A DNA stretch of 64,000 nt, from the NCBI GenBank assembly GCA_009845855.1, contig VXYT01000040.1:24367-88366 (forward strand), given 5' to 3'. Each line of letters begins with the position of its first letter. Position 1 is the stretch's first letter. Origin of the DNA: Candidatus Palauibacter ramosifaciens (GTDB lineage Bacteria > Gemmatimonadota > Gemmatimonadetes > Palauibacterales > Palauibacteraceae). Of this stretch, positions 4,209-63,270 are shown piece after piece. The notes under the pieces are model-generated. The model was not told the DNA's origin. It saw only the letters and a program-made list of their open reading frames with translations, and ran no database searches. Position numbers and translations under genes: made by a program.

Positions 4209-5237
4209 ATGACCTGGACCGCGCCCGAACACTGGCTTCGCGTCGAGACGATCGACGCCCACACGGAGGGAGAACCGCTGCGGGTCATCGTGGCGGGCTT
4301 CCCGGAGTTGGCGGGAGACACCGTCCTCGCCCGCCGGCGTGTGGCCCGTTCGGACCATGACAAACTCCGCCGCGCGCTGATGTGGGAACCGCGGGGCCAT
4401 GCGGACATGTATGGTTGCCTCGTGATGCCTCCCGTGCGCCCCGGTTCCGATTTCGCGGTCCTGTTCATGCACAACGAAGGTTACTCGACGATGTGCGGTC
4501 ACGGGATCATCGGCGTGGCGAAGATCGCTGTCGAAGCCGGCTGGATCGATGGGGCGGGCGGAGAGCGGTCGGTGACGATCGACACGCCCGCCGGGCTCGT
4601 GCGCGCCACCGCGATCCTCGAAGGCGAGCGCGTGCGGGAGGTCCGGTTCCTCAACGTGCCTTCCTTCGCGCCCGCGCTGGGGCGGGCCCTGGAGGTCGAG
4701 GGGTTGGGGGCGGTGTCATACGACCTCGCCTTCGGCGGCGCCTTCTACGCCTACGTCGATGCGGACGCGCTCGGGCTCTCGCTCACTCCCGGCGGCGCGG
4801 CCGACCTCATCGACGCGGGGCGCCGGATTACGCGTGCGGTGTCCTCGTCCGCCCGCGGCGAAATCTCGCATCCGGATGATCCGGATCTCGGGTTTCTCTA
4901 CGGCACGGTGTTCACGGGCGCGGCGGTCGACGCCGCACACCACTCGCGGCACGTCTGCATCTTCGCGGACGGGGAACTCGACCGCAGTCCGACCGGGACC
5001 GCCGTGAGCGGCCGCCTCGCCATCCTTCACGCGCGCGGAGAGCACTCCGGGGATGCGGAGATCATCGTCGAGAGCATCATCGGCGGCCGGTTCAGCGGCC
5101 GCGTCGTGGACACGACGTCTGTCGGCGGGTACGCGGCCGTCGTGCCGGAGATCGGCGGCCGGGCCTGGGTCACGGGCCGCCACGAGTTCCTCGTCGATCC
5201 GGAGGACCCGTGGCGGGACGGCTTCCTCGTCCGCTGA
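4209..5237 (+). CDS. proline racemase family protein, Cys/Thr type (trans-3-hydroxy-L-proline dehydratase-like)
   Basis: SMCGHG first catalytic motif; second motif DRSPTGTA has Thr where epimerases/racemases have Cys. Confidence 0.8.
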   Translation: MTWTAPEHWLRVETIDAHTEGEPLRVIVAGFPELAGDTVLARRRVARSDHDKLRRALMWEPRGHADMYGCLVMPPVRPGSDFAVLFMHNEGYSTMCGHGIIGVAKIAVEAGWIDGAGGERSVTIDTPAGLVRATAILEGERVREVRFLNVPSFAPALGRALEVEGLGAVSYDLAFGGAFYAYVDADALGLSLTPGGAADLIDAGRRITRAVSSSARGEISHPDDPDLGFLYGTVFTGAAVDAAHHSRHVCIFADGELDRSPTGTAVSGRLAILHARGEHSGDAEIIVESIIGGRFSGRVVDTTSVGGYAAVVPEIGGRAWVTGRHEFLVDPEDPWRDGFLVR

Positions 5238-5297: not shown

Positions 5298-5867
5298 ATG
5301 CCGCATATCGACACGGTAGCTCCCGAGGAAGCAGAGGGGCTCGTCGCCCGCGAGTACGAGAAGGCCGTCCGCCGCGCGGGGCGCGTCTTCAACGTGATCT
5401 GCATCCAGAGTCTGAACCCGCCCGTCATGCGTGCCTCGATCCGGCTCTACGAGGCGCTGATGCTGGCGCCCGGACCGCTGGGGAGGGACGTGCGGGAGAT
5501 GCTCGCGACCGTGACCTCGCGCGAACTCGACTGCTTCTACTGAACGGAGGCGCACGGAGAGGATCTCCGTCAGGCGACCGGGGACGATGACCTGGCCCGC
5601 GCGATCCGGATCGACTATCGGACGGCGGGGCTCGACGCGAAGACGCGCCGGCTGATGGACTATGCGGTGGCGATCACGCGCGAGCCGACCTCCACGGCTC
5701 GGCCGGACATCGACGGGCTGCGGGAGGTCGGCTGGACCGACGCGCAGATCCTGACCGCGACGGAGGTCGTCGGCTTCTTCAACTACTACGTGCGCATGGT
5801 CGAGGCGCTCGGTGTAGAACCGGAGCCTGAGATGGAGCGGGACCCGGCCTTGTGGCCGGATCCCTGA
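5298..5867 (+). CDS. carboxymuconolactone decarboxylase (CMD/AhpD-like) family peroxidase-related selenoprotein; in-frame TGA (5541-5543) read as Sec
   Basis: ORFs 5298-5543 and 5655-5867 are in the same frame. Together they reconstitute one ~189-aa CMD-family protein. The TGA falls at the second Cys of the family C-x-x-C-x3-H motif (here C-F-Y-U-T-E-A-H). AGGAGG RBS 8 nt upstream of the ATG; hairpin 11 nt after the TGA. Confidence 0.7.
5554..5570 (+). promoter_or_regulatory. candidate bacterial SECIS hairpin for the CMD-family selenoprotein
   Basis: ACGGAGA/TCTCCGT 7-bp stem (or 5-bp stem with GAGGAUC loop), beginning 11 nt downstream of the in-frame UGA. Confidence 0.45.
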
Positions 5868-5888: not shown

Positions 5889-8126
5889 CTAGCCTCCGGA
5901 CCGGCCTCGCGCGCGGGCGCCGCCGGTCGACCGCGAACTGCCGCCGGACCGGCGGACGGTGCCGCCGGACCGGGACCCGCCGCCGGATCGGCGGACCGCC
6001 CCGCCGGACCGGGACGCGCCGCCCGAACGGCTGACAGTGCCGCTCGACCTCGATGGCCCGGGGGGCCGCGCCGCCGGTCGCGATGACCGTGGGGCGGATG
6101 GCCGGGTCACGGGTCTCGTGGTGGACGGCGGGCGGCGAACGTCCGGCCGGGACGGCCTCGCCGCGGTGGGTCGCACGGGGGGCCTCGCCGGCACGGAGCG
6201 CACCGCCGGCCTCGCGGGATTCGACCTTGCCGTCGGCCGCGCCGTCGCGCCGCCCGTCCTCCGAACGGGCGGCGACTCCCGCGCCGTCCGCGGACGGACG
6301 ATCCGACGAACGCCCTCGTCGCCGGTCCGCGGGGCTGCGCGCTGTACGCCGCCGGAACCCGTCCGCGTCGCGGGTCGCACGGCCGGTCGTCTCGCGTCGT
6401 CGGGCACACCCCGCTCGCGCGCCGTGGGACGCCGGATCACCGGGCGAGCGCCGGTCCCCGATGCGGGCGGCGTTGCGCGCTGCACGCCGGATCGCTGCGT
6501 CGCCCGCTGCACACCGGGCCGCGCCGTCCTCGGCACGCCGGACCGCTCCGGCCGCAACGTACCGGCCTCCGGCGACCGTCTGGTCACCCGGACCGCCGGT
6601 GAGCCGGCCGTCCGCGAGGCACCGCTCGGCGCCCCGGCGGTCGCGTCGCGCGGGCGGGCCGACCGGCCATCGCGCCCTCGCAGCACGACGCGTTCGACCT
6701 CCCGCGGCAAGCCCGCGCCGCGATCGATGAAGCCGTCCGCATCGACCGCCGTTCTCCCGTCCCGCGAGACCGCGCGCCGCAGGCTCGCCAGCGTCTGCGC
6801 GGGTCGGCGCCGCGCCTCGCGCCCGAGCAGGCGGGAGTCCGTCAGCAGCACGCCGCGCTCGACCGCCTTCCGCCCGCGACCGAAGTCCGAACCGCCGACC
6901 GAGTAGAAGTGCTGTCGCCGGTGTCCGAGCCGGCCGTGCGGCAGGAATGTCCAGTGCCGATAGCGCCCGAAGCCGCCCCCGATGTGTCCGTAGACCCCGA
7001 AGTGGAAGCCCCAGCTGCTCCCGTAGTGGTTTCGGTAGTGGCGCCAGTAGTATCCCGAGGGAATCCAGCCCGCGTAGCTCGGGCCCCAGTACCAGTAGAC
7101 GTGCGCGACGGCGAAACGCCGGCCCGGGAACCAGACCCACCCCCAGCCGGGATCGAGGTCCCAGTACCCGTAGTGGTAGGGCACCCATCCCCATGGTTCG
7201 TACGAGACCCAGAACATTCCGCTGGGCGTGTGTCGCCAGCGCCCGTGCCGGTACGGAGCCCAGCCCGTTGAGACTCGCGGACGCCAGGCGACCCCCGCAT
7301 CGACGTGTACCCACGATCCGTGCCCGCGGAGCGAAGAGGCGGCGTAGTGGAGGTCCGGATCCAAATGGGCGGTGTACTCGCCGGACGCGTAGTCGCCGAC
7401 CCCCTGGCCCCACGCCTCCAGGCGATCGAGACCGGGGGCCGCCGCGAAGCGGAGCCGGTCCCCTCGCGCACCCTCGACGAAGAGGCTCTCCCCGCGGCGG
7501 ACCTCGGCGAGTTCCATCTCCGTCGTGACTTCCGCCACCCCCTCGCGCACGACGACCTCGCTCCGGCGCTCGTCGTCGACGACGATCAGGAAGGAACCGG
7601 CTCCCCGCGGCCGGATCGTCGCGTTAGGCGTGATGATGGAAGGCCACTCGGCCCCCGGTTGGTTCGGGGCCACCACGAGCTGCAGCGACCCGCGCGCGAT
7701 TTCGAGGATGGAGGCGGGATCGCTCGCATCCGCTGAGTTGGCGAGCGCGCGGAAGAGAAGCTCCGTCCGATCCCCGATCCGGACGAGGTTCCCGTCGGCG
7801 AGCGAAATCTCGATGCGGGATTCGCCGGACACGAAGATCCGGTCGCCGACGAGGACGGGCTCGTTCACCGCGAGCTGGATGCGATCCCGGGTGTCCCCCT
7901 GAATGAGCGTCGCTGACCCGTCCAGCGCCCGGAGGTATCCGTAGCTGCCGTCGATCCCGCTTTGCGCGACCGCGGCGTCATAATCGATCGGTGTCTCCGC
8001 CTCCTGGGCGGAGACCGGGGGCGCGACGAACGAGGTGCCCCACGCCACCCCGACCGCCCACACTCGCCGCCGGCCCCGCAACCACCGGGGCGCTCCGGAG
8101 TTTCCTCTCGCCTTTGCGAACCGCAT
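5889..8126 (-). CDS. FecR-domain secreted protein with W/Y/G-rich segment and basic RSGG/PR-rich C-terminal tail
   Basis: signal peptide (VAWGTSFVAPPVSAQ); FecR-like beta domain (aa 60-200); aromatic-rich aa 280-410; low-complexity tail with RSGG repeats; C-terminal extent uncertain. Confidence 0.5.
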   Translation of the reverse strand: MRFAKARGNSGAPRWLRGRRRVWAVGVAWGTSFVAPPVSAQEAETPIDYDAAVAQSGIDGSYGYLRALDGSATLIQGDTRDRIQLAVNEPVLVGDRIFVSGESRIEISLADGNLVRIGDRTELLFRALANSADASDPASILEIARGSLQLVVAPNQPGAEWPSIITPNATIRPRGAGSFLIVVDDERRSEVVVREGVAEVTTEMELAEVRRGESLFVEGARGDRLRFAAAPGLDRLEAWGQGVGDYASGEYTAHLDPDLHYAASSLRGHGSWVHVDAGVAWRPRVSTGWAPYRHGRWRHTPSGMFWVSYEPWGWVPYHYGYWDLDPGWGWVWFPGRRFAVAHVYWYWGPSYAGWIPSGYYWRHYRNHYGSSWGFHFGVYGHIGGGFGRYRHWTFLPHGRLGHRRQHFYSVGGSDFGRGRKAVERGVLLTDSRLLGREARRRPAQTLASLRRAVSRDGRTAVDADGFIDRGAGLPREVERVVLRGRDGRSARPRDATAGAPSGASRTAGSPAVRVTRRSPEAGTLRPERSGVPRTARPGVQRATQRSGVQRATPPASGTGARPVIRRPTARERGVPDDARRPAVRPATRTGSGGVQRAAPRTGDEGVRRIVRPRTARESPPVRRTGGATARPTARSNPARPAVRSVPARPPVRPTAARPSRPDVRRPPSTTRPVTRPSAPRSSRPAARPPGPSRSSGTVSRSGGASRSGGAVRRSGGGSRSGGTVRRSGGSSRSTGGARARGRSGG
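5930..6040 (-). repeat. tandem 12-20 nt GC-rich repeats (GCCGCCGGACCGG units) encoding the RSGG repeat tail
   Basis: visible direct repetition of ccgccggaccgg(g/c)... units on the + strand. Confidence 0.5.
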
Positions 8127-10861: not shown

Positions 10862-11881
10862 TCAACCTTCTTCGGCGACGGTGAACCGCATGAGACTTCC
10901 CGGGAACATCAGCCAGGCCGTGCCGTCGTCCAGGATGCGGCTGCTCCACGCCGCCTGGCGCCGCTGCGGGTCGCGCCACAGCACGGTGGCCCGGCCGTCC
11001 TCCTCGTAGGGCAGAAATACCCCGTCCACCGGATCAATCGCCGGGACGAGCCACACCCCCCGCTCGCCGGCCCGCATTTCCTTGAACCCCGGCGCGCTGA
11101 CGCCGGGGCGGCCCGCGACGCGCCGCTCCGTCTCCGCGCGCGTGCTCTCGACCAGCCATTCGGGTACCGCGATGCGGGAGATGCGAACAATCCTGGACGG
11201 ATCGTACTCCAGCTCGATTCGCCACAGGATCGTCCGCACCCCGTCGAGAAGGATCACCTCGCCCTTCCGTCCAACCGACATCACGACATGCTGCGCGCTT
11301 ATTCGGTCGACCGGTCCAAACGCCAACTCCTCGGGAAGCGGAACTTCGTTCGGGATGTTCAGGGGCCCATCCGCCAACCCGTACGCTGCAAGCAGAAAAC
11401 CCGGCTGTGCGCTGAGCCCGATGGCGCCGAGGACATGGTCGACCCCGAATCCAACGGCGGTCGCCATCGTCGCTCCCGGAAGCCGCGCCGTCTGCGGCTC
11501 TCCGCCTCCGGAAGGAAAGTGTATGAGCGCTGCCCGCCCGGGATCGCCTACCCAGAGTGAGCCATCGGGCGCGAACTGGACGCGCCACGGGGATTCGAGG
11601 ATCTCGGGATCCCCCGGCCCCGGAGGGCCGCCCAAGGTCGCGATATGCTCCCCCGACGAGCGGAACAACTGGACCCGCCCCGCCATGCGGTCCGCAACCG
11701 CGACCGTGTCCCCGAACAGATCGAACCCGCGCGCCGACTCGATAAAGATGTCGTCCGAAAGGAGGCCTGCGGGCGGCAGCTCCTGCACCAGCTCCCTCAC
11801 CGCGACCTGCGTGCTCGAATCAACATCAAGCGAGCGGTCGGCGCCGCCATCGCCGCACGCCCAAGTCGTCAACGCCGCCAT
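10862..11881 (-). CDS. secreted/lipoprotein-like beta-propeller family protein (paralog of the 29837 gene); start uncertain
   Basis: signal-like RRRLALVAMAALTTWAC; QELP motif and overall similarity to the low-GC paralog; the only nearby ATG gives a short signal peptide. Confidence 0.5.
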   Translation of the reverse strand: MAALTTWACGDGGADRSLDVDSSTQVAVRELVQELPPAGLLSDDIFIESARGFDLFGDTVAVADRMAGRVQLFRSSGEHIATLGGPPGPGDPEILESPWRVQFAPDGSLWVGDPGRAALIHFPSGGGEPQTARLPGATMATAVGFGVDHVLGAIGLSAQPGFLLAAYGLADGPLNIPNEVPLPEELAFGPVDRISAQHVVMSVGRKGEVILLDGVRTILWRIELEYDPSRIVRISRIAVPEWLVESTRAETERRVAGRPGVSAPGFKEMRAGERGVWLVPAIDPVDGVFLPYEEDGRATVLWRDPQRRQAAWSSRILDDGTAWLMFPGSLMRFTVAEEG

Positions 11882-11937
11882 CGCGACGAGCGCGAGCCGC
11901 CGGCGGACGACCGACGCGCCTGCTCCCCCGATGCCAC

Positions 11938-12441
11938 TCAACAGTGGTTCAACGAGCAGGGGTCTGGAGCGGGACCCTGAATTCTGATTGCCGAATTGCA
12001 ACCGCTGCTCGTCGAAAAATTCATCGTCGAGCCGTCGTGCATCTCGTACCAGCAGGAACAGACCTCGCAGGTTACGAAGCCCCAGGGGTCCATCGGGACG
12101 TCCGCACAAACGCCAAACGTGCGGACGCCACTAGCGGGGTTATGGGGGCCGCCCGAGATGTACGGGGGACAGCCGCCTTGGGCGGTCGCCGCTCCGTTCA
12201 CGCCTGATGCCGCCTTCGCTTCGATCGCGGGCACGTCGCCGACCTCGTGCTCGTCCTCCTCCGCGTGGACGTGTCCCATCGGTACGAATGGGGTCAGCAT
12301 CGTGAGGAGGAGGCCTGCGGCCACCCCTCGCCGCAACCGTCCTGCACCGAAGACGACCGAGCGGGCCGCCAGTACCGCGAGTACTTCTCCGATTGGTGAG
12401 GCGCCGGATGCGATGAAGGGGAAGAGCTTGAAGCTGGACAT
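11938..12441 (-). CDS. small membrane-anchored Cys/His-rich protein of unknown function
   Basis: GGGAGG RBS 5 nt upstream of the ATG; two N-terminal hydrophobic segments; HVHAEEDEHE; C-terminal domain with 8 Cys (CPPY...CADVP...CEVCSCW...CNS...CSLNHC). Confidence 0.45.
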   Translation of the reverse strand: MSSFKLFPFIASGASPIGEVLAVLAARSVVFGAGRLRRGVAAGLLLTMLTPFVPMGHVHAEEDEHEVGDVPAIEAKAASGVNGAATAQGGCPPYISGGPHNPASGVRTFGVCADVPMDPWGFVTCEVCSCWYEMHDGSTMNFSTSSGCNSAIRIQGPAPDPCSLNHC

Positions 12442-14326: not shown

Positions 14327-16003
14327 TCAGAAGAGCCCGACCACGCTCCCGTCCTCGACGATCCGGATCCCCTCCGCGGCGGGCACGCGCGGGAGCCCCG
14401 GCATCGTCATGACGGTCCCCGCCCTGGCCACGACGAAGCCCGCCCCCGCCGAGGGACGCACGTCCTGAACCGTGATGCGGAAGCCGGTCGGCCGCCCCAG
14501 GCGCGCCGGGTCGTCGCTCAGACTGTTCGGCGTCTTCGCGATGCAGACGGGCGTATCCCCGAGCCCGGCCGTCTCGAGTTGGCGGATGTCCTTCGAGGCG
14601 CGCGCCGCATAGTCCACGCCGTCCGCTCCGTACACCTTCCGCGCGATCGCCTCGATCTTGTCCCGGATCGAAGCCTCCGCATCGTATTTCGGCGCGAAGG
14701 CGGCCGCCCCCTCGTCGAGCGCCGCCAGCACTGCGCGGGCCAGATCCTCGCAGCCGGCGCCACCCAGCGCGTGGCCATCGGAGCGGGCCCAGGGTGCGCC
14801 CAGATCCTCGCACGCCTCGGCCACCGCGGCGATCTCCTCGTCGGAGTCCGTCGCGAACACGTTGATCGCCACCACGGGCTCGATCCCGAAGCCGCGGATG
14901 TTCTCGACGTGCGCGCCCAGATTCGCGAGCCCGCCGCGGACCGCGTCGGGCTCCGGGGCCGAGAGCGCCGTGCGGTCGCCCCCGCCGTGCAGCTTGAGGG
15001 CGCGGATCGTGGCCACGAGCACGGTGGCTTCCGGGTTCAGCCCTCCCGTCCGGCACTTGATGTCGAAGAACTTCTCGGCGCCGAGGTCCGACCCGAAGCC
15101 CGCCTCCGTGATCACGACATCGCCGAAGGCCAGCCCGGCCCGCGTCGCCATGAGGGAATTGCAGCCGTGCGCGATGTTCGCGAAGGGTCCGCCGTGGACG
15201 AAGGCCGGCGTGCCCTCCAGCGTCTGAACGAGGTTCGGTCCGATCGCCTCCCGCAGCAGCAGGGTCATGGCGCCCGCCACGTTCAGTTCGCGCGCCCGCA
15301 CGGGCTCCCCGCCGTAGTCGTATCCCACGATGATGCTGCTCAGCCGCTCCTCCAGGTCCTCGAGGCTGGCGGCGAGGCAGAAGATCGCCATCACCTCCGA
15401 GGCGGCTGTGATCATGAACCCATCCTCGCGCGGCACTCCGTTGATCCGGCCTCCGAGCCCGACGACGATGTTCCTGAGCGCCCGGTCGTTCATGTCGACG
15501 GCGCGCCGCCAGGTGATCTGGCGCGGGTCGATCCCGAGCCGGTTCCCCTGCTGCAGGTGGTTGTCCAGTGCGGCCGAGAGGAGCGCGTGCGCCGACGTGA
15601 TCGCGTGCAGGTCCCCCGTGAAGTGGAGGTTGATGTCCGCCATCGGGATCACCTGCGAGTACCCTCCGCCGGCGGCGCCGCCCTTGACGCCGAACACCGG
15701 GCCCAGGCTCGGCTCGCGAATGCAGAGCACCGAGTTCGCTCCCACGCGGCGCAGTCCGTCGGCGAGCCCCACGGAGACGGTCGTCTTGCCCTCGCCCGCC
15801 GCCGTCGGAGTGATGCCGGTGACGAGGACGAGCCGGCCCGCTCCGGGCTCACGCGCGAAGATGGACTCCGGGCCAACTTTCGCCTTGAAGTGGCCGTAGG
15901 GCACGAGTTCATCGAGCCCCAGCCCGATCTTCTCCCCGATCTCCCCGATGGGCCGGGGCGTCGCGGCCTCGGCGATCTGTACGTCCGTGAGCATCCGTAT
16001 CAT
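14327..16003 (-). CDS. fhs: formate--tetrahydrofolate ligase
   Basis: 558 aa; PTAAGEGKTT P-loop signature of FTHFS. Confidence 0.9.
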   Translation of the reverse strand: MIRMLTDVQIAEAATPRPIGEIGEKIGLGLDELVPYGHFKAKVGPESIFAREPGAGRLVLVTGITPTAAGEGKTTVSVGLADGLRRVGANSVLCIREPSLGPVFGVKGGAAGGGYSQVIPMADINLHFTGDLHAITSAHALLSAALDNHLQQGNRLGIDPRQITWRRAVDMNDRALRNIVVGLGGRINGVPREDGFMITAASEVMAIFCLAASLEDLEERLSSIIVGYDYGGEPVRARELNVAGAMTLLLREAIGPNLVQTLEGTPAFVHGGPFANIAHGCNSLMATRAGLAFGDVVITEAGFGSDLGAEKFFDIKCRTGGLNPEATVLVATIRALKLHGGGDRTALSAPEPDAVRGGLANLGAHVENIRGFGIEPVVAINVFATDSDEEIAAVAEACEDLGAPWARSDGHALGGAGCEDLARAVLAALDEGAAAFAPKYDAEASIRDKIEAIARKVYGADGVDYAARASKDIRQLETAGLGDTPVCIAKTPNSLSDDPARLGRPTGFRITVQDVRPSAGAGFVVARAGTVMTMPGLPRVPAAEGIRIVEDGSVVGLF

Positions 16004-57231: not shown

Positions 57232-58221
57232 GTGGCCCCCCTCCCGATCGCCCTCCTGCTCGGAGCCGTGGCCGTTGGGCTCAGGCTGCTCGCGTCGCGA
57301 CGGTCGGGCGCGGACCGCGAGAAACTCGCCGACAGCTCGCTGCTCGAGCGCTATGTGCGGCTGCCGGCGCACGCCCTTCCGCCCGTTCGCCTGGCGCTGC
57401 TCGGCGCGGGCGTCGTCGCGATCGCGCTCGCCTCCGGTTCGGGCGGGACGGAGGCACGGCGTCTCGATGAAGGCGGGGCGGAAACGATCCTGGTGCTGGA
57501 CGCGTCGAACTCGATGCTGGCGGGCGACGTCCAGCCGAGCCGGCTGGAGGTGCAGCGGCAGTTGGCCGCCCGTCTCGCGACGCAGACGCAGGGTCGGATG
57601 GGCGTCGTCTACTTCGCGGGCCGCGCGTACGTGCTGTCGCCGTTGACGACGGACATGAGCGCGATCGAGATGCTGGCGGAAGGCGTGCGGCCCGCCGCAG
57701 TGGGGCTGGGCGGATCCTCGCTCGCCTCCGGCCTCACGCAGGCGATCGATCTCCTCGCGGGCGGAGAGGAAGGCGCGCGCAAGTCGATCGTCGTCTTCTC
57801 CGATGGCGAGGAAACCGCCGGGGCGCCCCTCGGGGAGGCGATCGGGAGGGCCCGGGATGCGGGGATCGTCATCCATTCGGTGGGCATCGGAACCGAACTC
57901 GGAGGACAGATCCCCCTGACGCGGGAGGCGTCGCTGGACCCGACGATGGCCGCGCGACGCCGGGGCGGGGCTTCGGTGCTTCAGGGACCGGACGGCAGCC
58001 CGGTCATCACCCGGTTGAACGCCGCGCCGCTGCGGCAGATGTCTCTCGGCACGAGCGGGCACTACGTTGATGGTTCGGACGGCACCGACGCGATCGAGCG
58101 GGAACTGGCACAGGGCGGCCGGGAACCCCTTACATCGACCGACGACGTGGCCGTAGCGGCGTTGCTTCTGCTCGCCTTCGTCAGCCTCTGGGGAGAAGGG
58201 TTCCTGTTGCCACGTGGTTGA
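57232..58221 (+). CDS. vWA domain membrane protein (BatB-like)
   Basis: LDASNSM...SDGEETAG vWA motifs; TM flanks. Confidence 0.8.
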   Translation: MAPLPIALLLGAVAVGLRLLASRRSGADREKLADSSLLERYVRLPAHALPPVRLALLGAGVVAIALASGSGGTEARRLDEGGAETILVLDASNSMLAGDVQPSRLEVQRQLAARLATQTQGRMGVVYFAGRAYVLSPLTTDMSAIEMLAEGVRPAAVGLGGSSLASGLTQAIDLLAGGEEGARKSIVVFSDGEETAGAPLGEAIGRARDAGIVIHSVGIGTELGGQIPLTREASLDPTMAARRRGGASVLQGPDGSPVITRLNAAPLRQMSLGTSGHYVDGSDGTDAIERELAQGGREPLTSTDDVAVAALLLLAFVSLWGEGFLLPRG

Positions 58222-58924
58222 GTCGACGAGGAAGTGCGCGATCTTCGGGCTGGTGGCCGCGGCCGCCTCGCTTGCGGCGTTCGCCGGGGGTGAGCCGCAG
58301 GACCCCTCGGAGGAGGCGGCCGGTCAGGCCGGGGCCGCCGACCGGCAGGCGTCCGAATCCGAGACCGTCGCGCGCTACCGGGAACGAGCCGCTTCCTCCG
58401 ATCGGCCGATCGACCATTACAACTACGGGACCGCTCTGCTCCATGACGGGCAGGTGGGCGAGGCGCAGCCCCCCCTGGAACTTTCCATCGGCAGCGAGCG
58501 GGGCGAGGTGCGTGAGAGCGCCTTCTACAACCTCGGACTCAGCACGGCCCTCGACGGCCGCTTCGCTCAGAGCGACCCTTCCGCGCGGCGGGCTGCCCTC
58601 CAGTCGGCGCGCGAAGCCTTTCGCGAAGTCCTCCGCCGCCGCGTGGACGATGAGGATGCGCGCTGGAACCTCGAACTCGTCGAGCGCTGGCTCGAGGAGG
58701 AAGGGGAGAGCGGCGGTGACGAACAGCAGGGCGGGCAAGGACAGTCTCCGCAGGGGGCCGGCGCCGGGGCCGCGGCGGCCGCCGGCTCCGGCGAGATGGA
58801 GATGCTGTCGCCCGAACAGGCGGCGGCGCTTCTCGAACAGGCGGGCGACGCGGAGGCGGCGATCCGCGACCGCGTCATGGGCCGCAACCGTTTCCAGGAT
58901 CCGGTCGTGGAGCGGAACTGGTGA
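58214..58924 (+). CDS. TPR repeat protein (BatC-like)
   Basis: TPR-like helices (YNYGTALLHDGQ..., FYNLGLSTAL...). Confidence 0.65.
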   Translation: MVESTRKCAIFGLVAAAASLAAFAGGEPQDPSEEAAGQAGAADRQASESETVARYRERAASSDRPIDHYNYGTALLHDGQVGEAQPPLELSIGSERGEVRESAFYNLGLSTALDGRFAQSDPSARRAALQSAREAFREVLRRRVDDEDARWNLELVERWLEEEGESGGDEQQGGQGQSPQGAGAGAAAAAGSGEMEMLSPEQAAALLEQAGDAEAAIRDRVMGRNRFQDPVVERNW

Positions 58925-59982
58925 ACTCGCCTTCCGCCGAAGCGGCCCGCCTGACCCAGTACTCGCACGGGGCCGGCTGAGCGTGCAAGCTCGGCCCGGA
59001 GGATCTGGGCCGCATCCTGCAGCATGTTCCGCACTTTCCGGACGACCGGCTCCTCGTGGGACTCGAGGGCCCGGACGACGCCGCCGTGTATTTGCTCGAC
59101 GAGGGAGAGGCCATCGTCGCGAGCCTCGACTTCTTCACGCCGCTCGTCGACGATCCGGCCGACTTCGGAGCCATCGCGGCCGCGAACGCGCTCGGAGATC
59201 TGTACGCGATGCGGGCCCGCCCCCTGTTCGCGCTCAATATCCTGGCGATTCCCGCGGGGACCCTCTCGGATGAGACGGTCGGCGCGATCCTCCGCGGCGC
59301 GGGGGAAGTGTGTCGCGAGGCCGGCATCGCCGTGGCCGGGGGACACTCGATCGACGACGCGGAGCCGAAGTTCGGACTGGTGGCCATCGGGCTCGGCGAT
59401 CCCGACCGCCTGTGGAGAAAGGGCGGAGCGCGGCCGGGAGATGCGCTCGTGCTGGGCAAGGCGCTCGGAACAGGTGTCATCACGACCGGGCTCAAGCGCG
59501 GCGTGGCGGACCCGGCCGACCTCCTCGTCGCCGTCGATTCCATGCGGCAGCTCAACCGCGAGGCGGCGGCCGTCCTTGCCGGCTTCGACGTTCATGCCGC
59601 AACCGACGTCACGGGCTTCGGACTCCTGGGGCACCTGCTCGAGATGTGCCGCGCGTCGGACGCGAGCGCCCGGCTCCGGGCTTCGGCGCCCAGGCTTCTC
59701 CCCGGAGCGCTGCGCCTCGCCGGCGAGGGGTGCGTGCCGGGCGGCACGACGCGGAACCGGGACGCCTACGCGTCGCACGTGCAGTGGGCTGACGCCGTCC
59801 CCGACGACCTGCGCAACCTGATCCTGGACCCGCAGACTTCCGGCGGACTGTTGGCGGCCGTCCCTGCGGACGAGGCGTCGGCGGCCTCGTCCGCGCTCGC
59901 CGCGGCGGGCTATGCGGCCGCCGTGATCGGAGAGGTCATCGAGCGTGACGATCCGGCGGTCGGGATCGAGGTGTCGCCCTGA
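58921..59982 (+). CDS. selD: selenide, water dikinase (selenophosphate synthetase), itself a selenoprotein: in-frame TGA 58978-58980 read as Sec
   Basis: GTG start overlapping the BatC stop (GTGA). N-terminus MNSPSAEAARLTQYSHGAGUACKLGPEDL aligns with the SelD LTQYSHGAGCGCK motif, with TGA at the catalytic Cys/Sec position. The downstream 308 aa form a canonical AIR-synthase-like SelD body. Confidence 0.85.
58992..59012 (+). promoter_or_regulatory. candidate bacterial SECIS hairpin for selD
   Basis: CGGCCC/GGGCCG 6-bp stem with 9-nt loop GGAGGAUCU, starting 12 nt after the UGA. Confidence 0.45.
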
Positions 59983-60057
59983 TCGCGCGGCAGTCCCGCG
60001 GTCGTCTCCGGGGCGTTGGTGCCGAGCGCCGCCGCGCGTACGTTTCACGCTCCGTCC

Positions 60058-60131
60058 GGGCCCGTAGCTCAGCTGGTTAGAGCAGGGGACTCATAATCCC
60101 AAGGTCGCAGGTTCGAATCCTGCCGGGCCCA
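60058..60131 (+). tRNA. tRNA with anticodon CAU; acceptor-stem C4-G69/C5-G68 favours tRNA-Ile2 (lysidine) over elongator tRNA-Met
   Basis: cloverleaf: acceptor GGGCCCG/CGGGCCC, D-arm GCTC-AGCTGGTTA-GAGC, anticodon loop CUCAUAA, T-arm GCAGG-TTCGAAT-CCTGC; no encoded CCA. Confidence 0.85.
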
Positions 60132-60189
60132 TCCTCAGGATCCCCGAGTCCCGACGCCTGTATCCACCATCGAGAGCAAGGAGTCGTCC

Positions 60190-63100
60190 ATGCGGCCATG
60201 CCGGGTTCCGGTCTCCCGACGCGGGTCCCCCTTCCTGTTCGCCGTGCTCGCGCTGTGTTGCGCCGCGGCCTCGGACGCGGCCGCGCAGGCTCAGGCGACG
60301 ACCGGCGTCATCCGCGGGGTCGTCCGCGATCCGGTGGGGGCGCCGGTGGCCGAGGCCGCCGTCGTCATCGAGCATCGCGCGACCGGCTTCGCGACGACGG
60401 TCGTGACGGGCTCCAACGGGGCGTTCGTGCGCACGCTCCTGCCGCTGGGCGTCTATGACGTCACGGCCCGGGCGCTGGGGCAGTTCGGCGACGAGCGCAC
60501 CGAAGGGCTCGTCCTCCGCGTGGGAGAGGTCCTCGATCTCGTACTCGAGTTCAAGCCCGTCGCGGTGTCCGAGATCACCGTGACGGCCGACCGGACGCCG
60601 CTCGTCGACACCGGGGACCCGTCGAGTTCGCATCGGCTCGCCGAAGAGGTCGTCGACAACCTGCCCAACGACGGCCGCAACTTCCTCGACTACACGCTCC
60701 TCACGCCGGGCGTGTCCGTGTCGCAGGGTCCGGACGGCGAGGTCCTCAACATCGGGGGACAGCGGGGGATCTTCAACAACGTCTCCGTGGACGGAGCCGA
60801 CTTCAACAACCCCTTCTTCGGCGAGCAGCGCGGCGGCCAGCGTCCCGCCTTCACCTTCAGCCAGGACGCCATCGAAGAGATCGTCGTCGTGAGCCAGGGG
60901 GCGTCGGCGGAGTTCGGGCGCTCCGCGGGAGGCTTCGTGAACATCATCACGAAGTCGGGCACGAACGAGTTCACGGGCTCTGCGCACTACTTCGGCCAGT
61001 GGGATGCGATCTCCACCCCGTACCCAAGCGAGCGCGGGGGCGGAAAGCCCGAGTTCGGGCGGGGCCAGTTCGGCTTCACGCTCGGCGGCCCGATCGTGCG
61101 CGACAGGGCGTTTTTCTTCGTGGCCTACGACCAGCAGCAAGCGAGCGAGACGAAGCAGTTCACGCGCAACGTCGCGAACCGATCCGAACTCGAGAAGCTC
61201 GAGAACTTCCTCCAGACGCAGTGGCCCGGCCGGTTCGATGCCGAGTTCGGCCCGATCCGCCGCACCGACGACAACCGGGCGCTCGTGGCGAAGCTCGATT
61301 TCAACCTCAGCGACCGTCACCAGGCGTCTCTCAAGTACAACTACACCTGGTCCCAGCAGGTGAACGGTACATTCGACGTGGACTCCTGGGGTCTCAGCGC
61401 CAACGGTCTCGAGGAGGATTTCTCCCACGCGATCAACGCGAGCCTGAGGTCGCAGCTTTCCAACACCGTCTCCAACGAGTTTCGCGTCCAGTACGCGCGA
61501 GAGGATCGGCCCCGGGGATACGATGGACCCCTTATTCCGGGCTCCGCCCCGCCTCCGCAGCCGGCCTTCGGCACGGTCGGCGGCCGCCCGTTCCCGGACA
61601 TCGCGATGGACTTTGCGGACGGGTTCCGCATCGGGATGCCCTTCTTCCTCCCCATCGACCCGGCCTACGACCACCGGATCCAGCTCGTCGACAACCTCTC
61701 CTTCCTGGCGGGGGATCACCTGCTCAAGGTGGGCGTCGAATACAATCGGACGGGGGTCGGCCAGCAGTTCATCGGCTTCGCCAACGGCCTCTACAAGTTC
61801 TCCTCCGTCGACGGATTCATGAACTTCGTCACCCAGGGGAACCGATACGTCACCTGTTCCGACGGTTCCGACGGCGCGGAGGGCGTCTGTCCTCCGGGAA
61901 CCGCGATCACCGGCCCGGTCCTCCTCTACCTGCAGGCCCTCACGCTGGGAGATACTCCCGCCGGGCAGCTCGGACTGCAGGACTTCTCGATGCACGAACT
62001 CGGGCTTTTCGTTCAGGACACCTGGCGCCCGCGCGACAACCTGACTCTGAACCTCGGCGTGCGCTGGGAAGGGTCGTGGCACCCGGGGATGTTCATCGAG
62101 CCCGAGGACACCTTCTACGGGCCATGGATCGGGACGGCGGGGTTTCCGTCGGATGGGACGATTCCGGACGACCTCGACAACTTCCAGCCGCGCTTCGGCC
62201 TGGCCTGGGATCCCCGGGACGACGGGCGCACGCTCGTCCGCGTGAACGCGGGGTCCTACTTCTCGCGCATCCCGATGCTGGTGTTCGCGCAGCACCGCAC
62301 GACGAACGGGGCATTCCAGGGAACGCAGTTCGCGGCCAGCGACGCCACCTTCCTTCCGCCGCCTCCGCAGATCGGAGGATTCCTGACGCCGCCACCGCCG
62401 GGCACGCCGCCCTTCCAGCCCGGCGTGAACATCGCGGACCGCAACCTCGAACTGCCGCGGACGTGGTCGTTCAACGTTGCCGCAGAGCACGCGCTGAGCG
62501 GGAGCACCGCGGTGGAGCTTTCTCTCCAGCACGCCCGCACGGACAACCTGTTCCGCTTCGTGGACCGCAACGCAGCGGAACTCGGGGCGCCCTTCGCGGA
62601 CGGGGCCAGCGGACTGGGCACGCTCACCGTGACCGAGAGCAGCGCGCGCTCCCGCTACAACGCCGTCACCCTCGGATTGCGCGGGGACGGCGCGCTCGAT
62701 GGGAGACTGGCTTTCGAGGCGAACTACACGCTGAGCTTCGATCGGTCGGACGACGATAACGAACGTGATCCGTTCAACTTCTTCTATGCGACCGCAACCG
62801 ATTTCGAGCCCGAGTACAACTGGTCGATCCGGGACCGGCGGCACCAGATGACCGGCTTCATGCTCTTCGATCTCGGGCGCGGCGTCGTCCTCAACCACAT
62901 CTTCCGGTATCTCTCCGCGTCGCCGATGTCGGAGAGTTGCGGCCCGAGCGAGGCGAACCCTCTCGCCGCCCCGGCGGGCCAGCGCGCGGGCGCTCCGGCG
63001 GACCGCGTATGCGCCGATGGCTCGGTCCTCAAGCGCAACACGCTCCGGCGGGAGAACGACTTCTTCACCTGGGACCTGCGACTCTCGAAGGCCTTCGACA

Positions 63101-63270
63101 TCGGAGACGGGCGCACCGTCGAGCCGATCCTGGAGATCTTCAACCTGACGGGCGCCGACAACTTCCTCGACACCGCGCAGACCGGACTCCTGTTCAACTT
63201 CGACGGCACGATCCGGAGCGGCCTCGGAGACACGCGCCGCGCGCAACTCGGCGTCCGCGTCCGCTTCTAG
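60190..63270 (+). CDS. TonB-dependent outer membrane receptor with N-terminal carboxypeptidase-regulatory-like domain
   Basis: AAGGAG RBS; signal peptide; CarbopepD_reg-like start (TTGVIRGVVRDPVGAPVAEAAVV); plug and barrel; C-terminal Phe (…GVRVRF). Confidence 0.85.
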   Translation: MRPCRVPVSRRGSPFLFAVLALCCAAASDAAAQAQATTGVIRGVVRDPVGAPVAEAAVVIEHRATGFATTVVTGSNGAFVRTLLPLGVYDVTARALGQFGDERTEGLVLRVGEVLDLVLEFKPVAVSEITVTADRTPLVDTGDPSSSHRLAEEVVDNLPNDGRNFLDYTLLTPGVSVSQGPDGEVLNIGGQRGIFNNVSVDGADFNNPFFGEQRGGQRPAFTFSQDAIEEIVVVSQGASAEFGRSAGGFVNIITKSGTNEFTGSAHYFGQWDAISTPYPSERGGGKPEFGRGQFGFTLGGPIVRDRAFFFVAYDQQQASETKQFTRNVANRSELEKLENFLQTQWPGRFDAEFGPIRRTDDNRALVAKLDFNLSDRHQASLKYNYTWSQQVNGTFDVDSWGLSANGLEEDFSHAINASLRSQLSNTVSNEFRVQYAREDRPRGYDGPLIPGSAPPPQPAFGTVGGRPFPDIAMDFADGFRIGMPFFLPIDPAYDHRIQLVDNLSFLAGDHLLKVGVEYNRTGVGQQFIGFANGLYKFSSVDGFMNFVTQGNRYVTCSDGSDGAEGVCPPGTAITGPVLLYLQALTLGDTPAGQLGLQDFSMHELGLFVQDTWRPRDNLTLNLGVRWEGSWHPGMFIEPEDTFYGPWIGTAGFPSDGTIPDDLDNFQPRFGLAWDPRDDGRTLVRVNAGSYFSRIPMLVFAQHRTTNGAFQGTQFAASDATFLPPPPQIGGFLTPPPPGTPPFQPGVNIADRNLELPRTWSFNVAAEHALSGSTAVELSLQHARTDNLFRFVDRNAAELGAPFADGASGLGTLTVTESSARSRYNAVTLGLRGDGALDGRLAFEANYTLSFDRSDDDNERDPFNFFYATATDFEPEYNWSIRDRRHQMTGFMLFDLGRGVVLNHIFRYLSASPMSESCGPSEANPLAAPAGQRAGAPADRVCADGSVLKRNTLRRENDFFTWDLRLSKAFDIGDGRTVEPILEIFNLTGADNFLDTAQTGLLFNFDGTIRSGLGDTRRAQLGVRVRF

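Follow-up and report, generated by a model that had tools for sequence, protein, structure and literature searches.

Genes and hairpins at the locus

The window (the whole stretch of DNA that was analysed, 64,000 nucleotides) contains two genes with an in-frame UGA at a selenocysteine (Sec) position, one for an AhpD-like protein of the CMD family and one for selenide, water dikinase (SelD). Each is accompanied by a predicted SECIS hairpin, and the two hairpins share the octamer GAGGAUCU, which on the forward strand is found as GAGGATCT at both places. The features are:

5298..5867, forward strand: selenoprotein gene of the AhpD-like / CMD family, 189 codons with Sec counted, motif C-F-Y-U, from the read-through translation
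5541..5543, forward strand: Sec UGA of the CMD gene (CxxU), aligned with TGC in two Cys forms (L161, L162) and TGA in 80/80 metagenome loci
5554..5570, forward strand: predicted CMD SECIS hairpin, 5' arm 5554-5560, GGA triloop 5561-5563, 3' arm 5564-5570
5559..5566, forward strand: shared octamer in the CMD gene, on the E-D-L codons
58921..59982, forward strand: selD, Sec form, from the read-through translation; its GTG start shares bases with the stop codon of the preceding ORF (GTGA)
58978..58980, forward strand: Sec UGA of selD (G-A-G-U-A-C-K), aligned with TGA or TGC in selD loci L001-L080
58992..59012, forward strand: predicted selD SECIS hairpin, 5' arm 58992-59000, GGA triloop 59001-59003, 3' arm 59004-59012
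58999..59006, forward strand: shared octamer in selD; codon phase and structural role match those of the CMD copy

Family assignments support both genes as selenoprotein genes. The CMD-gene protein matches the Pfam family CMD (PF02627) and scores 125.7 bits against TIGR01926, above the family cut-off of 81.8. In its motif C-F-Y-U, which is followed by xxxH, Sec occupies the redox position equivalent to that of CxxC, and the corresponding column in full-length homologs holds Cys or a TGA translated as W. The SelD protein scores 378 bits against NF002098 (cut-off 299) and 376 bits against TIGR00476 (cut-off 125), and it shares 88-92% identity with Candidatus Palauibacter selD loci across residues 1-353; its UGA falls on the catalytic Cys/Sec site of the G-x-G-[C/U]-x-C-K motif. 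With these two selenoprotein genes confirmed, it is of practical interest that both kinds are routinely broken by gene callers: almost all Gemmatimonadota SelD protein entries begin past the UGA, and AhpD-like entries are either split in two or carry W at the UGA.

Four kinds of search through the window plus about 1.7 Mb of related loci (in-frame TGA with coding-like flanks, TGA linked to GAGGAYC, GGA-triloop hairpins, and generic bSECIS-like hairpins) revealed no selenoprotein genes other than selD and the CMD gene. A TGA at 14329 on the minus strand was rejected as an ordinary stop; the next gene continues in that frame, and the gene ending there is one that we take, from its translation alone, to be formate-tetrahydrofolate ligase-like. 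Also discarded was a third copy of GAGGATCT preceded by an in-frame TGA (11597); it is antisense to the real gene that occupies 10862-12109 on the minus strand.

Structure and position of the shared octamer

The octamer and both hairpins described in the first-pass annotation are present in the sequence, and each hairpin is the minimum-free-energy fold. The CMD hairpin, ACGGAGA-GGA-UCUCCGU, has a 7-bp stem and a folding energy of -8.4 kcal/mol (z = -3.0), while the selD hairpin, CGGCCCGGA-GGA-UCUGGGCCG, has a 9-bp stem and a folding energy of -15.7 kcal/mol (z = -4.0). In both genes the octamer is read as the codons GAG GAU CUN, and the read-through frames bear out the reported translation as Glu-Asp-Leu. 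The octamer had been described as a shared loop motif. The shared 8-mer stands, but the only bases predicted to be unpaired are GGA: the preceding GA forms the top two stem bases on the 5' side and UCU the top three on the 3' side, and because GA and UC(U) make up the top of the stem, the octamer is better described as a hairpin tip. The GGA triloop with its A-U closure is itself a thermodynamic prediction, and it may be the pentaloop AGGAU that acts as the functional loop. An internal Shine-Dalgarno-like role of GGAGGA was considered and rejected; no in-frame start codon stands at a suitable distance from it, and it is located past the recoding site.

The further claim that the octamer starts at the same offset of 17-18 nt in both genes did not survive measurement. 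The octamer begins 15 nt past the last base of the UGA in the CMD gene and 18 nt past it in selD, which corresponds to 18 and 21 nt when counted from the U. The distance from the UGA to the start of the loop is 17 nt in the CMD gene (5544-5560) and 20 nt in selD (58981-59000), a gap of exactly one codon.

Conservation of the two elements

The strongest evidence for constraint on the CMD element comes from 80 metagenomic loci (soil, peat and sediment) that were collected with a query alignment of 4 sequences and encode proteins with 48-92% identity to the window protein. The 18-nt element CACGG[A/G]GAGGATCTCCGT is exact in 78/80 of these homologs, and every wobble base in it is the base that the 7-bp stem with GGA triloop requires. 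Wobble identities at codons +4 to +9 are 1.0, A/G only, 1.0, 0.99, 1.0 and 0.97, compared with 0.54-0.76 at equally invariant residues elsewhere in the gene. The sole free wobble position, in GGR, alternates only between A and G, both of which can pair with U, and the frozen positions hold over 72 unique CMD sequences. Two Cys forms likewise contain the peptide HGEDLR, and in them the hairpin is kept as a fossil; no other Cys forms with HGEDLR were found. Distant Cys members of TIGR01926, retrieved by tblastn against plasmids at ~30-35% identity (closer plasmid matches were not obtained), lack E-D and read H-GAAV, H-KRYL, H-FAGL or H-AAIL.

In selD, the stem varies in a manner that preserves pairing. 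Changes in the lower stem within the clade include C-G to U-A (L022, L168), C-G to U.G (L166), G.U to A-U (L011) and G-C to G.U (L169), whereas the tip RGA-GGA-UCU is invariant above this drifting lower stem. In a joint alignment of the elements 98.6% of the cells are paired, three pairs have changed on both sides and the two apical pairs are invariant; the covariation score was reached by 0/500 shuffles. Cys-encoding selD genes without E-D read APGVL, SAKEL or GSSEL at this place. The CMD wobble freezing and the compensatory changes in selD thus show structure conserved beyond the coding need, and together with the loss of E-D in distant Cys homologs of both families they uphold the earlier proposal of an RNA-level constraint on the octamer.

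These observations have to be set against the frequency of the octamer itself. The window contains 12 copies of GAGGATCT, where 2.9 are expected from dinucleotide-preserving shuffles, an approximately 4-fold excess, and 5/9 of its in-frame EDL tripeptides use this spelling; the excess arises because GAG-GAT-CTN is the favoured spelling of E-D-L there. Over-representation of GATC was rejected as its cause: this tetramer is 3.3-fold above the base-composition expectation in the window, but its count of 593 compares with 603 predicted by a second-order Markov model and holds no special signal. A high frequency in coding DNA would have made two hits unremarkable, but the in-frame rate without the two Sec sites is only 3 per 16,856 codons in the window, or ~1.8e-4 per codon, from which we calculate a chance of ~1e-3 per gene that the octamer falls somewhere in a stretch of six codons downstream of a given codon. 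The window has 10 hairpins that combine a GGA triloop with a stem of 6 bp or more, and of these only the CMD and selD ones have an open in-frame TGA upstream. In a search for TGA-linked motifs in 1.69 Mb of related loci, 110/114 sites with an in-frame TGA, 9-27 nt, GAGGAYC and open flanks belong to selD or CMD genes.

Distribution across lineages

The octamer had been proposed as a lineage-specific loop, a view that its distribution contradicts. The CMD hairpin is identical at the nucleotide level in a Terriglobia (Acidobacteriota) MAG, GCA_020072905.1, and in a contig of 38% GC (L163), in addition to the 78 metagenomic loci. A CMD paralog carries a similar hairpin with a GUU loop, ACGCAGA-GUU-UCUGCGU. 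For selD, GAGGAYCU with C at the variable position is present in other Gemmatimonadota, Marinimicrobia, Planctomycetota and Deltaproteobacteria.

Sec-encoding SelD proteins elsewhere (L012-L035, L047, L075) share the peptide K-[LIV]-x-x-E-D-L, mostly K-[LI]-G-P-E-D-L, with the window protein and have GAGGAYC at the matching codons. They differ in that Asp is encoded by GAC instead of GAU, and in their hairpin GGUCC-NGA-GGACC, the loop of which is one codon nearer to the UGA than in the window selD. Sister Gemmatimonadota have GAGGACCU in selD, folded in another register; as a consequence of the shifted register, equivalent selD bases take different structural roles in other loci. A GGA or NGA triloop is also found in selD loci of other Gemmatimonadota, Marinimicrobia and Deltaproteobacteria. 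The tops of further Sec-selD hairpins that look functional are different, namely C-GGA-G, A-GGAUU-U (in the Acidobacteriota locus L055) and GACGCAG-GUC-CUGCGUC. In the Gemmatimonadales, selD has an fdhF-like GGUC apex. In all, the Sec-selD genes of Gemmatimonadota use at least three apexes. In the Palauibacter clade the Asp codon of selD is GAU, against a genomic preference for GAC (73%).

Interpretation

The reading that we prefer, with a probability of roughly 0.8, is that each hairpin is a canonical bacterial SECIS element of a known family (TIGR01926 with CxxU for one, SelD for the other) and that the octamer reflects an RNA-level constraint, not a signature of the lineage. Both elements are an ordinary feature, correctly spotted in the first-pass annotation, of two long-known selenoprotein families. 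The octamer lies at the hairpin tip, where the SelB-binding loop of a SECIS element is expected; from this position we infer binding of SelB, and the constraint is almost certainly SelB-related.

The mRNA 3' of the Sec UGA would fold into a stem of 7 bp (CMD) or 9 bp (selD) topped by a GGA triloop, with A-U as the closing pair and G-C as the pair below it. If the process resembles that of E. coli and Moorella, the C-terminal winged-helix domain of SelB, loaded with Sec-tRNASec and GTP, would bind the G-G of the loop together with the upper end of the stem, and a loop 17-20 nt from the UGA would place the SelB complex at the A site, leading to the UGA being read as Sec. The shared A-GG-A-U tip is an instance of the generic loop consensus N1-G-[G/U]-N-N2, and E-D-L appears in both proteins because the tip is written in one codon phase (GAG GAU CUN). 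The CMD element is probably an old 18-nt segment under two constraints, the need of the subfamily for H-G-E-D-L-R and the pairing of each wobble base with a fixed first or second codon base; it would have stayed unchanged across phyla with its gene because these constraints overlap. The selD element is probably a clade-level remodelling of the older multi-phylum GAGGACCU SECIS by a wobble C-to-U change and new flanking arms.

The AhpD-like subfamily thereby offers an example of dual coding over six consecutive codons (H-G-E-D-L-R), where all positions are held fixed by the pairing of every wobble base with an invariant coding base. For the same reason the 18-nt string CACGGRGAGGATCTCCGT is a possible probe for the subfamily, to be used only in combination with the upstream C-x-x-TGA context: an exact 17-mer scan of viral contigs gave 7 matches, and these we attribute to chance since a preceding in-frame TGA or C-x-x-U was found in 0/7.

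Several points count against the preferred reading. The tip identity that remains beyond the G-G consensus (the A-U and G-C closing pairs, the third loop base A and the next 3' base U) would be, by our own estimate, a coincidence of about 1 in several hundred under random tips. The GAU codon in Palauibacter selD could reflect selection toward the CMD-type tip, and Palauibacter SelB may prefer the exact tip genome-wide, the sample here being the two selenoprotein genes of the lineage.

An alternative reading is a tip class R-G-A / G-[G/U]-N / U-C-U that spans phyla and is preferred for SelB binding in a wide range of bacteria, with SelB reading the loop plus the top two pairs and Palauibacterales selD having converged on it from GAGGACCU. 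The AGA...UCU top recurs in the HGEDLR subfamily of CMD genes, in the Palauibacter selD clade and in the CMD paralog with the GUU loop, the two apical pairs are those found invariant in the joint alignment, and selD departs from the preferred Asp codon by a single wobble substitution. However, the paralog is probably related to the CMD gene by common descent, the truly independent gene families number only two, the other functional-looking Sec-selD hairpins differ at the top, and the published consensus demands no specific closing pairs (PMC13188914). We regard such a class as unlikely, and equally doubtful is the more specific scenario in which the tip is a module favoured across phyla and the selD SECIS was rebuilt toward the AhpD-like tip by the GAC-to-GAU change, new arms and a loop shift of one codon. 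If true, the rebuilding of selD would represent SECIS convergence within a genome, driven by a single SelB; unless this convergence took place, the loci add nothing new to the biology of SelB.

It also appears improbable that GAGGAUCU is a lineage-specific SelB recognition loop, obligatory in all selenoprotein mRNAs of the organism. Such a loop would agree with the octamer, structural role and codon phase being common to both selenoprotein genes of the window, with GAU in Palauibacter-clade selD where sister clades have GAC, and with the clade tip remaining invariant as the lower selD stem drifts. It is at odds with the identical CMD hairpin in Acidobacteriota, in an organism of 38% GC and in diverse metagenomes, with the selD motif GAGGAYCU in at least four phyla, and with the C-GGA-G and GGUC-type apexes of other Gemmatimonadota; a third selenoprotein gene with the motif was not found in the 1.69 Mb of related loci.

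The idea that RNA structure is irrelevant, both proteins simply needing E-D-L in a common spelling, could draw on the 4-fold octamer excess, the favoured GAG-GAT-CTN codons and the presence of HGEDLR in two Cys forms, but it is hardly credible, being contradicted already by the wobble freezing in the CMD gene, the covariation in selD and the absence of E-D from distant Cys homologs, as well as by the fossil hairpin in those very Cys forms and the low background in-frame rate.

Comparison with known SECIS elements and selenoprotein families

AhpD-like proteins and SelD are both named as known selenoprotein families (PMC13188914; PMC2398784), the AhpD-like one being abundant in marine data. The GOS data set is described as containing 357 sequences of SelD and 299 of the family AhpD-like 1 (PMC2398784). 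The window protein belongs with the AhpD-like family (TIGR01926 / COG2128, CxxU) by its score above the TIGR01926 cut-off and its C-F-Y-U-T motif. Against NF041238 ('AhpD_rel_CFYUT') it scores 42.5 bits where the cut-off is 175, and it therefore falls outside that equivalog. In the selenoprotein literature passages that were searched by term we found no mention of the near-invariance of the 18-nt CMD SECIS across phyla. An Rfam scan of the window returned tRNA-Met only, and no match to a curated bacterial SECIS family.

The bSECISearch model of Zhang and Gladyshev, in its published summary, specifies a loop of 3-9 nt, an upper stem of 4-16 bp, an MFE of at most -7.5 kcal/mol, the loop consensus N1-G-[G/U]-N-N2 with N1 and N2 paired, and a UGA-loop spacing of 16-37 nt (PMC13188914). 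Both hairpins are part of the coding sequence, immediately follow the Sec UGA and stay within these limits, with 3-nt loops, stems of 7 (CMD) and 9 bp (selD), spacings of 17 and 20 nt and the MFE values given above; the tip A-GG-A-U in both corresponds to the loop consensus. No departure was seen in the properties compared, the triloops being near the lower size limit.

The E. coli fdhF element resembles the window hairpins in its apical mini-helix, in which an A-U pair closes a loop that opens with G-G. Its apex, GCA-GGUC-UGC at 18 nt past the UGA, was confirmed in 5,419/5,426 genomes. The G-U dinucleotide in the loop and a bulged U in the stem of fdhF are determinants for SelB in E. coli. 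The tip of fdhF reads CA-GGUC-UG as compared to GA-GGA-UC here, and the loop stands at 18 nt instead of 17 and 20 nt. Unlike fdhF, whose loop is the 4-nt GGUC and whose stem has the bulged U, the window hairpins have a GGA loop on perfectly paired stems of 7-9 bp without a bulge.

The two selenoprotein genes

Two genes in the window (69.7% G+C) are interrupted by an in-frame TGA, and each carries the octamer GAGGATCT, read as Glu-Asp-Leu, in a hairpin shortly downstream. The features are:

5298-5867, + strand, CMD gene (AhpD-like/CMD family), ORF of 189 codons
5541-5543, TGA, sole interruption of the CMD gene
5554-5570, CMD hairpin ACGGAGA-GGA-UCUCCGU, MFE -8.4 kcal/mol, z = -3.0
5559-5566, octamer in the CMD gene
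58921-59982, + strand, selD (selenide, water dikinase, Sec form)
58978-58980, TGA interrupting selD
58992-59012, selD hairpin CGGCCCGGA-GGA-UCUGGGCCG, MFE -15.7 kcal/mol, z = -4.0
58999-59006, octamer in selD

The TGA contexts are C-F-Y-U-T-E-A-H-G-E-D-L-R in the CMD gene and G-A-G-U-A-C-K-L-G-P-E-D-L in selD. The CMD protein matches TIGR01926 'peroxidase-related enzyme' (125.7 bits, cut-off 81.8) as well as Pfam CMD, and the selD product matches the SelD models NF002098 (378 bits) and TIGR00476 (376 bits); in its selD region the window encodes a protein 88-92% identical to those of Candidatus Palauibacter (Gemmatimonadota) genomes. Genes and elements alike belong to already known kinds, and little in them is new: the families recorded in PMC13188914 include 'AhpD-like protein, TIGR01926, CxxU' and SelD, and the counts for the Global Ocean Sampling data set in PMC2398784 include 357 SelD and 299 AhpD-like 1 sequences. 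No further selenoprotein gene and no tRNA-Sec were found in the window, and its Rfam matches were to tRNA-Met only.

Public gene calls systematically break both genes (protein entries P0019-P0138, P0003-P0018 and P0139-P0253). Nearly all of the 120 Gemmatimonadota SelD entries listed are 286-333 aa long and start after the UGA, P0044 being the only full-length Cys form among them; AhpD-like homologs are entered as halves of 81 and about 105 aa, as fragments beginning 'MEAHGEDLR...', or with the UGA translated as W.

A proline racemase-family gene (4209-5237, + strand, Pfam E = 3.5e-108) precedes the CMD gene on the same strand with a gap of 60 nt, and the two may be co-transcribed. The GTG start of selD overlaps the upstream stop as GTGA (58921-58924). 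In the Palauibacter-like clade (window 57232-63270; loci L165-L170) the gene order VWA-domain protein, protein of ca. 230 aa without Pfam match, selD is kept. Downstream of selD the window has tRNA-Met (60058-60131) and then a CarboxypepD_reg/TonB-dependent receptor, also present in L165; more distant clade members have a UPRTase gene at this place instead, and L168 a methyltransferase gene.

Constraint on the hairpins

The octamer and both hairpins reported by the first-pass annotation are present, each hairpin being the predicted minimum-energy fold, and the two SECIS elements had been correctly spotted. The octamer had been described as a loop motif at the same offset from both UGAs. In the predicted folds its GGA is indeed unpaired, but GA and UCU form the top of the stem; the octamer begins 15 nt after the UGA in the CMD gene and 18 nt in selD, one codon apart, so that the offsets differ (the loops begin at 17 and 20 nt).

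A metagenome scan gave 80 CMD loci (56-75% G+C) encoding homologs 48-92% identical to the window protein; over a core of 150 residues, ungapped identity among homologs drops to as little as 41%. TGA stands at the CxxU position in all 80, and 78/80 have exactly CACGG[A/G]GAGGATCTCCGT; of the two exceptions one ends in the codon CGC and the other reads GGC...GAC. Wobble positions were compared in 72 unique sequences, among them the window and three loci from exact-protein look-up (one of 38% G+C).

Wobble identity in 72 CMD sequences (positions relative to Sec)
His +4: 1.0, 1 distinct codon
Gly +5: 0.71, almost only A or G, 3 distinct codons
Glu +6: 1.0, 1 distinct codon
Asp +7: 0.99, 2 distinct codons
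Leu +8: 1.0, 1 distinct codon
Arg +9: 0.97, 2 distinct codons
Invariant residues elsewhere (R-19, R-16, E-15, L-13, A-12): 0.54-0.76, 2-5 codons

In the modelled fold the frozen wobbles would pair with bases fixed by the protein (CAC3-CGU2, CGU3-CAC2, CUC3-GGR2, GAU3-GAG2), GAG3 would be the first loop G, and GGR3, the sole variable wobble, would pair with the U of CUC, and varies only between A and G. The 18-nt element is thus invariant because of dual coding, H-G-E-D-L-R being overlaid on a 7-bp stem with a GGA loop, a neat but minor observation on AhpD-like SECIS elements. The one Sec-containing CMD homolog to depart from the frozen element, at locus L160 (Ga0080064_1001290), has CACGGCGAGGACCTCCGT, giving a C.U stem mismatch and an AGGAC pentaloop; this may reflect either a variant that is tolerated or decay of the gene.

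Among 80 named selD loci obtained by a genome scan, several SECIS types can be told apart. The clade with GAU (window, L001-L011, L014, L022 and look-up loci L165-L170; 70-92% identity to the window protein) has an invariant tip, R-G-A-GGA-U-C-U, and structure-preserving changes in the lower stem: C-G to U-A in L022 and L168 (Pro-to-Ser and Gly-to-Ser in the protein), C-G to U.G in L166 and L167, G.U to A-U in L011 and L166, and G-C to G.U in L169. In a joint alignment with the CMD hairpins 98.6% of cells are paired over 7 pairs, of which 3 change on both sides; the covariation score was reached by 0/500 shuffles, and slid controls gave at most 44% pairing. The proposed RNA-level constraint on the octamer is borne out by the frozen CMD wobbles and these selD changes.

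Frequency of the octamer

The octamer occurs 12 times in the window on both strands, vs 2.9 expected from dinucleotide shuffles, because it is a favoured spelling of in-frame E-D-L (5/9 EDL tripeptides). In rough gene calls of 16,856 codons GAT makes up 27% of Asp codons, and 36% where C is the next base. GATC is not enriched given trinucleotide composition (593 observed, 603 expected). With the two Sec sites left out, 3 in-frame octamers remain per 16,856 codons, so background frequency does not explain two octamers just 3' of two Sec codons. The window has 10 GGA-triloop hairpins with stems of at least 6 bp, and 2/10 (CMD, selD) lie downstream of an open in-frame TGA. In 1.69 Mb of related sequence, the pattern TGA-(9-27 nt, in frame)-GAGGAYC occurs 114 times with open flanks, 110 of them in selD or CMD genes.

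A third candidate, GAGGATCT placed 39 nt downstream of a TGA at 11597, was rejected, being antisense to a real minus-strand gene. On the minus strand at 6248-6274, within the Arg/Pro/Ser-rich C-terminal part of a FecR/DUF6600 ORF (5889-8126, - strand), CGCCGCCCGUUC-GGA-GGACGGGCGGCG forms a perfect 12-bp stem with GGA triloop (-24.5 kcal/mol, z = -3.7); the scan for open in-frame TGA codons 14-26 nt upstream of the loop gave none here. Tetranucleotide CTAG is strongly under-represented in the whole window (12 observed vs 35.8 expected from trinucleotide composition), and TCGA and TGCA are slightly over-represented (1.28-fold each).

Distribution across lineages and Cys forms

The octamer had been taken most probably for a lineage-specific SelB-binding loop, a restriction contradicted by both gene families. 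A third protein search, with a peat-type CMD homolog, matched NCBI entries under the names Acidobacteria, Acidobacteriia or Terriglobia bacterium; these are C-terminal fragments whose calls start directly after the UGA, with 'MEAHGEDLR...' as their first residues. The DNA of one acidobacterial assembly (GCA_020072905.1, L182) reads TGA ATC GAA GCT CAC GGG GAG GAT CTC CGT, and a 38% G+C contig (L163) has CACGGGGAGGATCTCCGC; gene and element therefore move together, over at least two phyla and a very broad span of G+C contents.

Conversely, selD has several different apexes within Gemmatimonadota. Other members (L012-L021) write G-P-E-D-L as GGU CCG GAG GAC CUG, predicted to fold as GGGUCC-GGA-GGACC(U), also with a GGA triloop; this loop lies one codon nearer the UGA, so that bases shared with the GAU clade would take different roles. 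Marinimicrobia, Planctomycetota and Deltaproteobacteria have the GAC form as well. Gemmatimonadales Sec-selD (K-L-G-M-S-E-L...) has GACGCAGGUCCUGCGUC instead, resembling the E. coli fdhF apex, and with this different downstream sequence the SECIS type changes within the phylum. Two hairpins, CUCGG-GAUGU-CCGAG and GACGCAG-GUC-CUGCGUC, are seen in these loci (L026-L030, L043, L051, L054, L060, L063). Acidobacteriota Sec-selD has GGGUCCAA-GGAUU-UUGGACUC or a GUAUU loop, and Cys-selD has APGVL, SAKEL or GSSEL at the E-D-L position.

Judged by its Cys members, the TIGR01926 family has no general protein requirement for E-D: distant forms encoded on Tsukamurella, Thermus, Aminobacter and Agrobacterium plasmids have CxxC-xxx-H-GAAV-R, H-KRYL-R, H-FAGL-K and H-AAIL-R. 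Only the Cys forms P0001 and P0002 have HGEDLR, and both keep the hairpin (intact in L162, one mismatch in L161) as a fossil SECIS, such as PMC1794560 reports for recent Sec-to-Cys conversions. L161, a Logan SRR22387839 contig of 1626 nt, carries two AhpD-like paralogs: on the plus strand the Cys form (CFYC) with its decaying fossil element (GGC mismatch), and on the - strand a Sec form (CHYU, H-A-E-F-L-R) with ACGCAGA-GUU-UCUGCGU, the same architecture with AGA/UCU top and GUU loop. A more distant Sec form (L164) has an unrelated hairpin.

Comparison with known SECIS elements

Conserved hairpins of correct geometry lie directly 3' of the Sec codons in two selenoprotein genes. The bacterial SECIS model, as given in PMC13188914, has a loop of 3-9 nt on a stem of 4-16 bp, G in the first two loop positions (mostly N1-G-[G/U]-N-N2 with N1:N2 paired), a UGA-to-loop distance of 16-37 nt and MFE <= -7.5 kcal/mol. 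Both hairpins agree with it on 4/4 requirements, A-GG-A-U being exactly the common pattern. The shared tip is thus explained partly by this generic consensus and partly by the age of each element, frozen within its own gene family; a wobble C-to-U change and new arms would have been all that the selD version needed to match the CMD tip exactly. With two genes to go by, we think it improbable that SelB has a preference for the AGA/UCU top on which selD then converged.

As is established for E. coli and Moorella, SelB binds the SECIS loop and upper stem through its C-terminal winged-helix domain. By analogy this domain would bind the same parts of the CMD and selD hairpins, and binding would tether SelB-GTP-Sec-tRNASec to the ribosome with UGA in the A site. 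The SECIS element of E. coli fdhF has the tip GCA-GGUC-UGC, 18 nt after the UGA, and was confirmed in 5,419/5,426 E. coli genomes. Its apex GCAGGUCUGC is closely similar to the second Gemmatimonadales selD hairpin (GACGCAG-GUC-CUGCGUC). With the CMD and selD hairpins it has the A-U closing pair and the G-G start in common, but unlike theirs its loop has 4 nt.
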